Sequence record: OZ035789.1
Direction: 5' to 3' (one strand)
DNA: 64,000 nucleotides
Origin: Tequatrovirus BCH953P4
This document shows, piece after piece, positions 52,415 to 54,667 of this stretch (the first letter of the stretch is position 1; each line of letters begins with the position of its first letter). Under the pieces are notes generated by a model that saw only the letters and a program-made list of their open reading frames with translations, was not told where the DNA came from and did no database searches. Made by a program: the position numbers and the translations under genes.

Positions 52415-53320
52415 TTAAAGGTCATTCAAAAGGTCATCCAGGTCCGTGTCATCAGCACTAGATGAACTGCCAGAGCTTGAGCTCATAAAATCATCTTCAG
52501 TTTTTGTATTGAAGTCATCAACATTGAATGCATCCAAATCATCAGCAACTTTATCAGCTTTCTTAGCAGCAGTCGCTGCGGCACCGCCCATCACAGCAGT
52601 TCCCATAACTTGACCGAATTTAGTATTCAGTTCTTCAAACGATTTGAATTTATCTTTAGAAGTCATTTCAGAAAGGTCAACCATTTGTTCGAACAGTTCT
52701 TTCTGGAAAGATTCATCATCAATGTTTGGAATCGCAGATTGATTCAGGAATTTAGATTCGTCGTAGTTACTAAAACCAGAAACTTGTTTAACTTTCAGTA
52801 CAAAGTTAGCACCTTCCCACGGACAAGTTACATCAACCGGAGTTTCACCCATTTCAACATCAACCGCAATCATCGCGTTGATTTTATCCCAGATTTTCTT
52901 ACCGAAACGATATTTAAATACTTTACCTTCATTTTCTGGAGCAGCTGGGTCTTTTACAACAAGAATATTAGCCCAGTAAGAAGTTTTACGTTTAACAAGA
53001 CTGTACTCTTTATTGTCAGTGTTGTACAGATCATTTTTACTGATGTACTGACATACTGGACAAGAATCGTAATCACCATGGGTAGATGAACATGTTTCAA
53101 TATACCATTTACCATTTTTCTTGAAACCGTGATTTACAAGAATTGCGAATGGTGCTTGTTCATCATTTTTAGACGGAAGAAAACGAATTACTGCTTGACC
53201 GTTACCCGCATTATCGAGTTTCAGTTTCCACTCGCCTTTATCTTCAGAAGAAAAACCTTTATTGCCATTCAGTTTAGCCATTTGTGCAGCAAGTTCAGCA
53301 GTAGATTTACGTTTAAACAT
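52415..53320 (-). CDS. 32: Single-stranded DNA-binding protein gp32
   Basis: 301 aa; sequence recognised; acidic C-terminus. Confidence 0.97.
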
Positions 53321-53395
53321 TTTATTTCCTTTTTAATTTAATTTAATTTAATTAACAGTTGGTGCTATGACACTTTACCTCATAGCTGGCATAAT
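53321..53395 (-). promoter_or_regulatory. Gene 32 translational operator (pseudoknot plus UUAAA repeats)
   Basis: coding strand ...CCAGCUAUGAGGUAAAGUGUCAUAGCACCAACUGUUAAUUAAAUUAAAUUAAAUUAAAAAGGAAAUAAAAUG. Confidence 0.8.
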
Positions 53396-54012
53396 TCGCA
53401 ATACTCTGGGTCTTCGAGAGGTATCCAACCTGAGTTGAAATACTTTACCATCGATTTAGCAGTTGTATCAGTTATATTTATATTACCTTTAACTCTTCGC
53501 CATCCAGGAGTTTTACCGTACAGATTAGAGGATAATAATAACACATAATTCTCGTAAGCAATATGAGATAATTTCCAAGACTCTATATTAGCTCGTGATG
53601 TTTTCCAAGGTCTAAAATCGTCACGGTTCATATAATTAGCCAATCTCATATGCTCTCTAACTTCCGGGTCTTTGGCTGGATGAGTTTCACCACTCACACC
53701 AAATCCACCACCAGCATATACCAGATTAAAATAGTCTGGATTATCTCTGGCATTTACTTCAAGTTGGTATTTTCGTTCTGCTTCAATAACATCCAAGTCA
53801 TCATCAATTTGAATTATTTTAACGCTCGGTTTTTGAAGCATTAGCGCATTCAAAAATCTTTTTTGTTTACATGAGCTCCAGTATTCCTTTCCGGAAGAGT
53901 CATATATTATTCCGTTCTCAAATGAGCAATTTAATTTACTACCGATATAATAGTATGGCGGAGTCTTATTTTTGACACGGTCTTCAAATGTAAACCAATA
54001 TACTATATTCAT
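53380..54012 (-). CDS. segG: Putative GIY-YIG homing endonuclease (SegG-like)
   Basis: 210 aa; N-terminal IVYWFTF...YYYIGSK spacing resembles GIY-YIG; located between genes 32 and 59. Confidence 0.55.
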   Translation of the reverse strand: MNIVYWFTFEDRVKNKTPPYYYIGSKLNCSFENGIIYDSSGKEYWSSCKQKRFLNALMLQKPSVKIIQIDDDLDVIEAERKYQLEVNARDNPDYFNLVYAGGGFGVSGETHPAKDPEVREHMRLANYMNRDDFRPWKTSRANIESWKLSHIAYENYVLLLSSNLYGKTPGWRRVKGNINITDTTAKSMVKYFNSGWIPLEDPEYCELCQL

Positions 54013-54013
54013 A

Positions 54014-54667
54014 TCAATACTTGCAAGATTTCACAGTTTCAATGAAAACATTTTTAGCTTTCTGTGAATCAATATTTAAAATTTTTCTATAAGCCTTTAA
54101 CTTTATAGAATAATTATTCCAGACTAAATTATCAGTCTGTTCATCGTGTTTATCAATTATATTTAAAAACGAATCAAGCAAGATAAACGTTTCAAACGAA
54201 ATTATATTCGACTGAAGCAGTTTAAAAATATAACTTGATTGAACCTTTGGATTATATTCAAAGATTTCTTTAAAAGCAGAAACTTCAACTTTTTTACTAA
54301 AATAATAAATGTTGCGAATATCTTCTTCAAACTTAAATTTAATTTGCTTTAAGCGTCCGATATATTCACGATAAAACACAAGTGCATCAGCGTCAGAGAT
54401 GTCACCAATCCAAGCATCTTGGTTAGCAACCAGATTGCTTATAAAGATTAAAGCAAGTTCCTTTAATTTATATTTTTCTGATAACTTCTGGAAAAAATAC
54501 TTATCCCTTCGCTTTTGATAAGCGGCATCAGACACCCGCATGCACCAATTATACTTAATAACATCATACTTTCCATTCATATGTTGTTTTATCATTAAGT
54601 ATAATTTATAAACTGATTTACCATCAATGTATCTTTCACCACCAGCAGGCATGCGGAGTTTAATCAT
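54014..54667 (-). CDS. 59: Helicase loader gp59
   Basis: 217 aa; sequence recognised. Confidence 0.93.
   Translation of the reverse strand: MIKLRMPAGGERYIDGKSVYKLYLMIKQHMNGKYDVIKYNWCMRVSDAAYQKRRDKYFFQKLSEKYKLKELALIFISNLVANQDAWIGDISDADALVFYREYIGRLKQIKFKFEEDIRNIYYFSKKVEVSAFKEIFEYNPKVQSSYIFKLLQSNIISFETFILLDSFLNIIDKHDEQTDNLVWNNYSIKLKAYRKILNIDSQKAKNVFIETVKSCKY

Follow-up and report, generated by a model that had tools for sequence, protein, structure and literature searches.

The DNA upstream of gene 32 in Tequatrovirus BCH953P4 (OZ035789.1; the 64,000 nucleotides analysed are called the window) is very probably the known T4-type 59-segG-32 junction, working by the known mechanism in a mosaic Tequatrovirus, with an extra UUAAA unit as a length allele of the gene 32 leader. 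An earlier note on this DNA had described a segG-like ORF of 210 aa whose stop codon region lies inside the pseudoknot of the gene 32 operator, so that endonuclease coding and gp32 autoregulation share nucleotides. This observation was confirmed and its interpretation supported; the overlap itself is already known, being marked in Figure 3 of Borjac-Natour et al. 2004 (PMC535899). Beyond confirmation the result carries little weight, as the overlap, the RNase E site and the promoters inside segG all belong to the textbook picture of T4. A modest addition is a census of natural operator alleles with 2-5 UUAAA units, which are ready-made variants for the gp32 lattice-length model, and a second is that only the T4-type allele of segG has the coding/operator overlap. 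This analysis rests on sequence identity, the geometry of the ORF and the pseudoknot, covariation, counts of alleles and the protein fold; what is said on endonuclease activity, repression by gp32, cleavage by RNase E and use of the promoters is carried over from the T4 literature.

Gene order and genomic setting

Three genes were identified at the junction, all on the minus strand:

54014-54667, minus strand: gene 59, helicase loader (Pfam T4_Gp59_N and T4_Gp59_C, E about 1e-53)
53380-54012, minus strand: segG (formerly ORF 32.1), free-standing GIY-YIG homing endonuclease, 210 aa (ORF list)
52415-53320, minus strand: gene 32, gp32, single-stranded DNA binding protein, 301 aa (Pfam PF08804 gp32, E = 4.9e-67)

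The product of gene 32 was 100% identical to T4 gp32 across residues 1-275 (tblastn), and the upstream neighbours dsbA, gene 33, rnh and gene 34 were arranged in the T4 order. segG is free-standing and sits between genes 59 and 32, as does T4 segG. Position 53321, which the earlier note gave as the start of its feature, is not the end of this ORF; it is the leader base immediately before the gene 32 AUG. Between the gene 59 stop and the segG ATG there was 1 nt, the sequence at 54010-54016 (minus strand) being UGAUAUG, that is, the gene 59 UGA, one base and the ATG. No Shine-Dalgarno sequence for segG was recognisable at 54010-54016, which would fit an endonuclease translated weakly or by coupling.

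A 901-bp query covering the junction matched Yersinia phage PYps55T and Escherichia phage UPWr_E2 at 100% identity and T4 at 99.1%. The 24-kb stretch at window positions 40000-64000 had no end-to-end match among deposited phages, the best records reaching 87-90% coverage at 95-97% identity in 4-8 pieces. Since the junction is locally 100% identical to PYps55T and UPWr_E2 while the 24 kb have no end-to-end match, the genome is a mosaic Tequatrovirus carrying a T4-type 59-32 region. The possibility that the window is simply T4 or PYps55T was rejected on the same grounds. Two records named as Pseudomonas phages, PV654520.1 and OR584013.1, also carried the T4-type segG/gene 32 leader at or near 100% identity, and their host labels are possibly doubtful.

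The gene 32 operator and its overlap with segG

The pseudoknot and the UUAAA repeats described in the earlier note were both read directly from the sequence. The elements of the leader and of the 3' part of segG are as follows:

53834-53842, minus strand: AATGCTTCA, MotA-box-like motif followed by TAAAAT, inside segG; candidate middle promoter (motif scan)
53475-53482, minus strand: TATAAATA, T4 late-promoter consensus inside segG; candidate gene 32 late promoter (motif scan)
53392-53397, minus strand: GAAUUA, by our own count at the position of the T4 RNase E processing site, segG codons Glu206-Leu207 (sequence identical to T4; motif search)
53364-53391, minus strand: H-type RNA pseudoknot of the gene 32 translational operator, 28 nt (identical to T4)
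53380-53382, minus strand: segG UGA stop, within the 5' strand of pseudoknot stem 2 (ORF list and sequence)
53356-53363, minus strand: spacer ACCAACUG from pseudoknot to repeats (sequence)
53332-53355, minus strand: A/U-rich unstructured operator, UUAA at 53355-53352 followed by four UUAAA units at 53351-53332 (sequence and T4 alignment)
53326-53331, minus strand: gene 32 Shine-Dalgarno AAGGAA, with a spacer to the AUG one A shorter than in T4 (sequence)

On the minus strand the region reads ...UGC GAA UUA UGC CAG CUA UGA GGUAAAGUGUCAUAGC ACCAACUG UUAA (UUAAA)x4 AAGGAAAUAAA AUG. As read from the sequence, stem 1 of the pseudoknot pairs UGCC (53391-53388) with GGUA (53379-53376), loop 1 is A53387, stem 2 pairs GCUAUGA (53386-53380) with UCAUAGC (53370-53364), and loop 2 is AAGUG (53375-53371). 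The SegG stop UGA (53382-53380) forms the final three bases of the 5' strand of stem 2, and the codons Cys208-Gln209-Leu210 (53391-53383) span the 5' strand of stem 1, loop 1 and the first four bases of stem 2. With the last three codons and the UGA inside the pseudoknot, 12 of its 28 bases therefore double as segG codons or stop, and the shared nucleotides proposed in the earlier note are real. In T4 the pseudoknot is likewise about 28 nt (PMC535899), and the NMR structure of the T2 pseudoknot has been solved, as cited in PMC3014915.

MFE folding with ViennaRNA recovered stem 2 and left the downstream leader open, with no stable structure predicted in its A/U-rich part. The unstructured leader comprises 43 nt (UUAA, four UUAAA units and AAGGAAAUAAA) and has the A/U-rich character of a T4-type operator, in which such a region, with UUAAA/UAAA repeats and the ribosome binding site, extends over about 40 nt or more. 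The AACUG portion of the ACCAACUG spacer was kept in the leaders of RB69, Gravdalen, KEN37 and the T2-type phages. The (TTAAA)x4 run was the only one in the window and was absent from 100 shuffles; TRF described the tract with a period of 5 and 4.4 copies. Binding of gp32 to its own leader and repression of its own translation are established in T4 and RB69, and autorepression in T4 needs UUAAA/UAAA elements, which add to specificity (PMC535899).

RNase E of T4 cuts 71 nt upstream of the gene 32 AUG, and all gene 32 mRNA species are cut just upstream of the pseudoknot, the upstream part being rapidly degraded (PMC3014915). The GAAUUA motif was found just 5' of the pseudoknot in the window, at -75 by our own count versus -71 in T4. 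The two promoter motifs agree with the literature, in which middle and late promoters of gene 32 are embedded in segG (PMC2988022); TATAAATA is a candidate gene 32 late promoter and AATGCTTCA a putative middle promoter, both assigned from the motif scan. segG is also transcribed within upstream polycistronic messages (PMC2988022).

By analogy with T4, SegG would be a selfish endonuclease that cuts gene 32 of segG-less relatives, after which repair of the double-strand break would copy segG along with adjoining gene 32 sequence. The gene would be entangled with the control elements of gene 32, its last three sense codons and UGA supplying the 5' strands of the pseudoknot. gp32 would nucleate at the pseudoknot on its own mRNA and spread cooperatively along the A/U-rich leader of 43 nt, covering the UUAA, the four UUAAA units and the Shine-Dalgarno sequence, so that once single-stranded DNA is saturated the leader-bound gp32 would block ribosome binding. 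The RNase E site 5' of the pseudoknot, within the segG frame, would part a stable gene 32 mRNA from the segG message, and gene 32 promoters would lie inside segG.

The additional UUAAA unit and its distribution

The fourth UUAAA unit that the earlier note suspected relative to T4 is real. Alignment with T4 (KJ477684) showed identity from the 3' end of segG through the pseudoknot, followed by one more TTAAA and, from the Shine-Dalgarno sequence to the AUG, a spacer shorter by one A: T4 has UUAA, three UUAAA units, AAGGAAAU, AAAA and AUG, and the window UUAA, four UUAAA units, AAGGAAAU, AAA and AUG. The unstructured leader is therefore 43 nt long versus 39 nt in T4, and the pseudoknot lies at -71 to -44 instead of -67 to -40. 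Apart from the repeat number and the A-run, the junction agrees with that of T4 (PMC535899): the order 59-segG-32, the SegG protein, the 28-nt pseudoknot and the overlap are all identical, and the RNase E motif, the Shine-Dalgarno sequence and the type of repeat unit are common to both.

A pattern scan of IMG/VR for the leader gave 4 loci, too few for allele statistics, so allele-specific megablast queries were run against 50,697 phage records; the identity bands of two queries gave mutually consistent counts. The T4-type, segG-linked leader was found in 139 records, with 2 units in 33, 3 in 79, 4 in 26 and 5 in 1 (Ptacy1496), counts of records and not of independent lineages, as RefSeq/GenBank duplicates and laboratory T4 stocks are included. 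An assembly artefact as the source of the extra repeat was rejected, since the 4-unit allele was present in independent records, 23 of them exact and 3 near-exact, and alleles with 2, 3 and 5 units exist as well. Phages OE5505, PYps14T, PYps15T and UPWr_E4 matched the 901 bp of the window at 99.4% with an 896-bp match and therefore differ by the 5-nt unit only, a difference that bears the signature of recent slippage. The segG-less T2-type leader was found in about 358 records, 329 of which (~92%) matched the two-unit query exactly; rare expansions were seen in JEP6 (4 units) and HY03 (5 units). UUAAA copy number was highly polymorphic in segG-linked T4-type leaders and almost fixed at 2 in the segG-less T2-type. 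From these alleles, the fourth UUAAA of the window is a common allele of a slippage-prone pentanucleotide tract that varies from 2 to 5 copies among relatives, and it is probably neutral, near-neutral or only mildly modulatory.

It is also conceivable that repeat number tunes repression. The site size of gp32 is about 7 nt, and by our own arithmetic a lattice of 39 nt holds floor(39/7) = 5 monomers and one of 43 nt floor(43/7) = 6. An adaptive extra unit would thus lengthen the lattice from 39 to 43 nt, accommodate one more cooperative gp32 monomer and shut off translation at lower free gp32, the spacer between Shine-Dalgarno and AUG, shorter by 1 nt, being a compensating change. The need for UUAAA/UAAA elements in repression and their contribution to specificity (PMC535899) would fit, and all 23 exact four-repeat records had the shorter A-run, laboratory T4 having 3 repeats and the longer one. 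However, phages with 2, 3, 4 and 5 copies and otherwise identical flanks are all viable, and the shorter A-run was found with 2, 3 and 5 units as well as with 4 and is therefore not coupled specifically to the fourth repeat. We consider an adaptive extra unit unlikely. In a wider version, for which we see only a slim chance, the tract would be a slippage-prone 'rheostat' in which the number of copies (2-5) fixes the threshold of gp32 autoregulation; its diversification would take place preferentially in leaders linked to segG, perhaps through slippage in repeated homing-associated repair synthesis across the leader. It takes up the high polymorphism of T4-type leaders versus the exact two units of ~92% of the segG-less T2-type, a contrast for which more slippage in longer arrays, or common descent, could be explanation enough.

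Pseudoknots and segG homologues in related phages

Covariation supported the pseudoknot. The set comprised T2-type phages, RB69, Erwinia phage Gravdalen, Klebsiella phage KEN37, phage PSD2002 and two metagenomic contigs. Across 8 leader types all 11 pairs were kept, with standard pairs in all 88 cells and compensatory double changes in 7 of the 11, counts that are biased towards the pseudoknot because the stems were registered by hand to the structure; when the 3' partners were slid in the alignment, pairing fell to 30-45%. Hand registration was used because an automatic MAFFT alignment of the pseudoknot regions misplaced stem 1 and was dropped. Together with the stems and the identity to T4, this assigns the element to the T4-type gene 32 operator. 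Searching the leader against Rfam 15 at permissive thresholds gave only chance-level matches (E 2.4-9.4, well below gathering scores), so the operator is not covered by any Rfam family. No Rfam 15 match to the pseudoknot rose above threshold, despite an NMR structure and clear covariation across at least five genera of T4-like phages.

The T2/T6-type operator, which has no upstream segG, shares with the window the H-type architecture, an identical stem 2 (GCUAUGA/UCAUAGC, including the UGA triplet), a single-A loop 1, the ACCAACUG spacer, the UUAAA repeats and the Shine-Dalgarno sequence. It differs in stem 1 (UGACC/GGUCA versus UGCC/GGUA in the window) and in loop 2 (7 nt versus 5). In the T2-type phages JEP6 (L018) and HY03 (L019) the late-promoter sequence TATAAATA lies directly upstream of the pseudoknot.

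SegG homologues with 48-64% protein identity were also found at the 59/32 locus of other T4-like phages, namely in the metagenomic contigs L013 and L016 and in L015 (Escherichia phage PSD2002). Each of them terminates before its own covarying pseudoknot, 5-25 nt upstream of it, with no shared bases (homologue/pseudoknot regions L013:3098-3231, L015:3107-3234 and L016:3116-3209). Because these homologues stop upstream, the coding/operator overlap is specific to the T4-type segG allele and not general among segG homologues. Borjac-Natour et al. 2004 suggested a chimeric nature of segG, its frame having been lengthened into a pseudoknot that was already present (PMC535899). Both the homologues that end upstream of their pseudoknots and the segG-less T2-type leaders, which already hold the GCUAUGA strand including the UGA, fit this suggestion.

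The position of the stop codon invites the idea that termination and repression are functionally coupled. The last 12 nt of the ORF contain the 5' strands of both stems, and segG is part of upstream polycistronic messages (PMC2988022). On polycistronic transcripts that have escaped processing, ribosomes ending at the UGA in stem 2 might open the pseudoknot and lift gp32 repression for a short time; in the other direction, SegG termination might be hindered by the pseudoknot or by bound gp32. Such coupling is improbable, however, in view of the RNase E cleavage of all gene 32 mRNA species upstream of the pseudoknot with quick loss of the upstream part (PMC3014915). Late transcripts would begin inside segG and so would carry no segG start codon, segG has no obvious Shine-Dalgarno sequence, and the upstream stops of the divergent homologues at the same locus indicate that the overlap is not a conserved requirement of a segG/32 pair.

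Two further leaders had no obvious T4-like pseudoknot in the 125 nt upstream of gene 32, those of Erwinia phage COW86c (L009) and Escherichia phage PSD2001 (L012). In COW86c only 10 nt separate the end of gene 59 from gene 32. In the PSD2001 leader there is a simple hairpin, CUUCAAGCACUUUGAAG; both segG and a pseudoknot are present in the related PSD2002.

Identity and family of SegG

The SegG protein of the window was identical to that of T4 at 210 of 210 residues, in keeping with orthology. The T4 record annotates it as 'homing endonuclease; SegG; GIY-YIG family', and in PHROGs it fell into phrog_7504 (E = 1.3e-133), labelled 'homing endonuclease' only. SegG is listed among the active free-standing GIY-YIG endonucleases, with its gene inserted between genes 32 and 59 and gene 32 as its target, and in T4 x T2 crosses it accounts for the exclusion of T2 gene 32 (PMC2988022; PMC2330249). 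As related in these two papers, Liu et al. 2003 (J Mol Biol 334:13) reported that T4 SegG, the identical protein, cleaves gene 32 DNA of segG-less phages site-specifically and homes with co-conversion.

The earlier note had called the ORF a segG-like GIY-YIG endonuclease and had looked to an HMM comparison with GIY-YIG families for support. The assignment stood on the identity to T4 SegG and on the structure model; sequence HMMs did not bear it out. Pfam gave no match at E≤1 to PF01541 or an equivalent profile, NCBIfam gave no match, and precomputed Pfam domains were present in none of 29 SegG homologues drawn from a search of 5.8 billion proteins. Nothing relevant was found among PDB sequences by phmmer with SegG or with a profile of 26 homologues, and a Foldseek comparison of the model with I-TevI was not significant (E 1.3). 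I-TevI and other GIY-YIG nucleases share too little sequence similarity with SegG for Pfam PF01541 to detect it, and the spacing from the GIY-like to the YIG motif is longer in SegG than in I-TevI. In addition, I-TevI is intron-encoded, whereas segG is a free-standing gene.

The structure model was confident and showed the GIY-YIG alpha/beta fold of the catalytic domain. R12, Y22-I23-G24, K26, E79 and N96 were invariant in 26 homologues, down to 28% identity, and Y5 was nearly invariant; counterparts of the I-TevI residues R27, E75 and N90 may be among them. It is hardly credible that the ORF is a decayed, inactive remnant kept only for the gene 32 promoters and its part of the operator, as the absent Pfam and NCBIfam GIY-YIG matches and the embedded promoters favouring its retention (PMC2988022) might suggest, since the ORF is intact, Y22-I23-G24, E79 and N96 are kept and the model has the GIY-YIG fold, and its product is identical to a T4 protein that is listed as active, drives T2 gene 32 exclusion and, in the work of Liu et al. 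as cited above, cleaves site-specifically.
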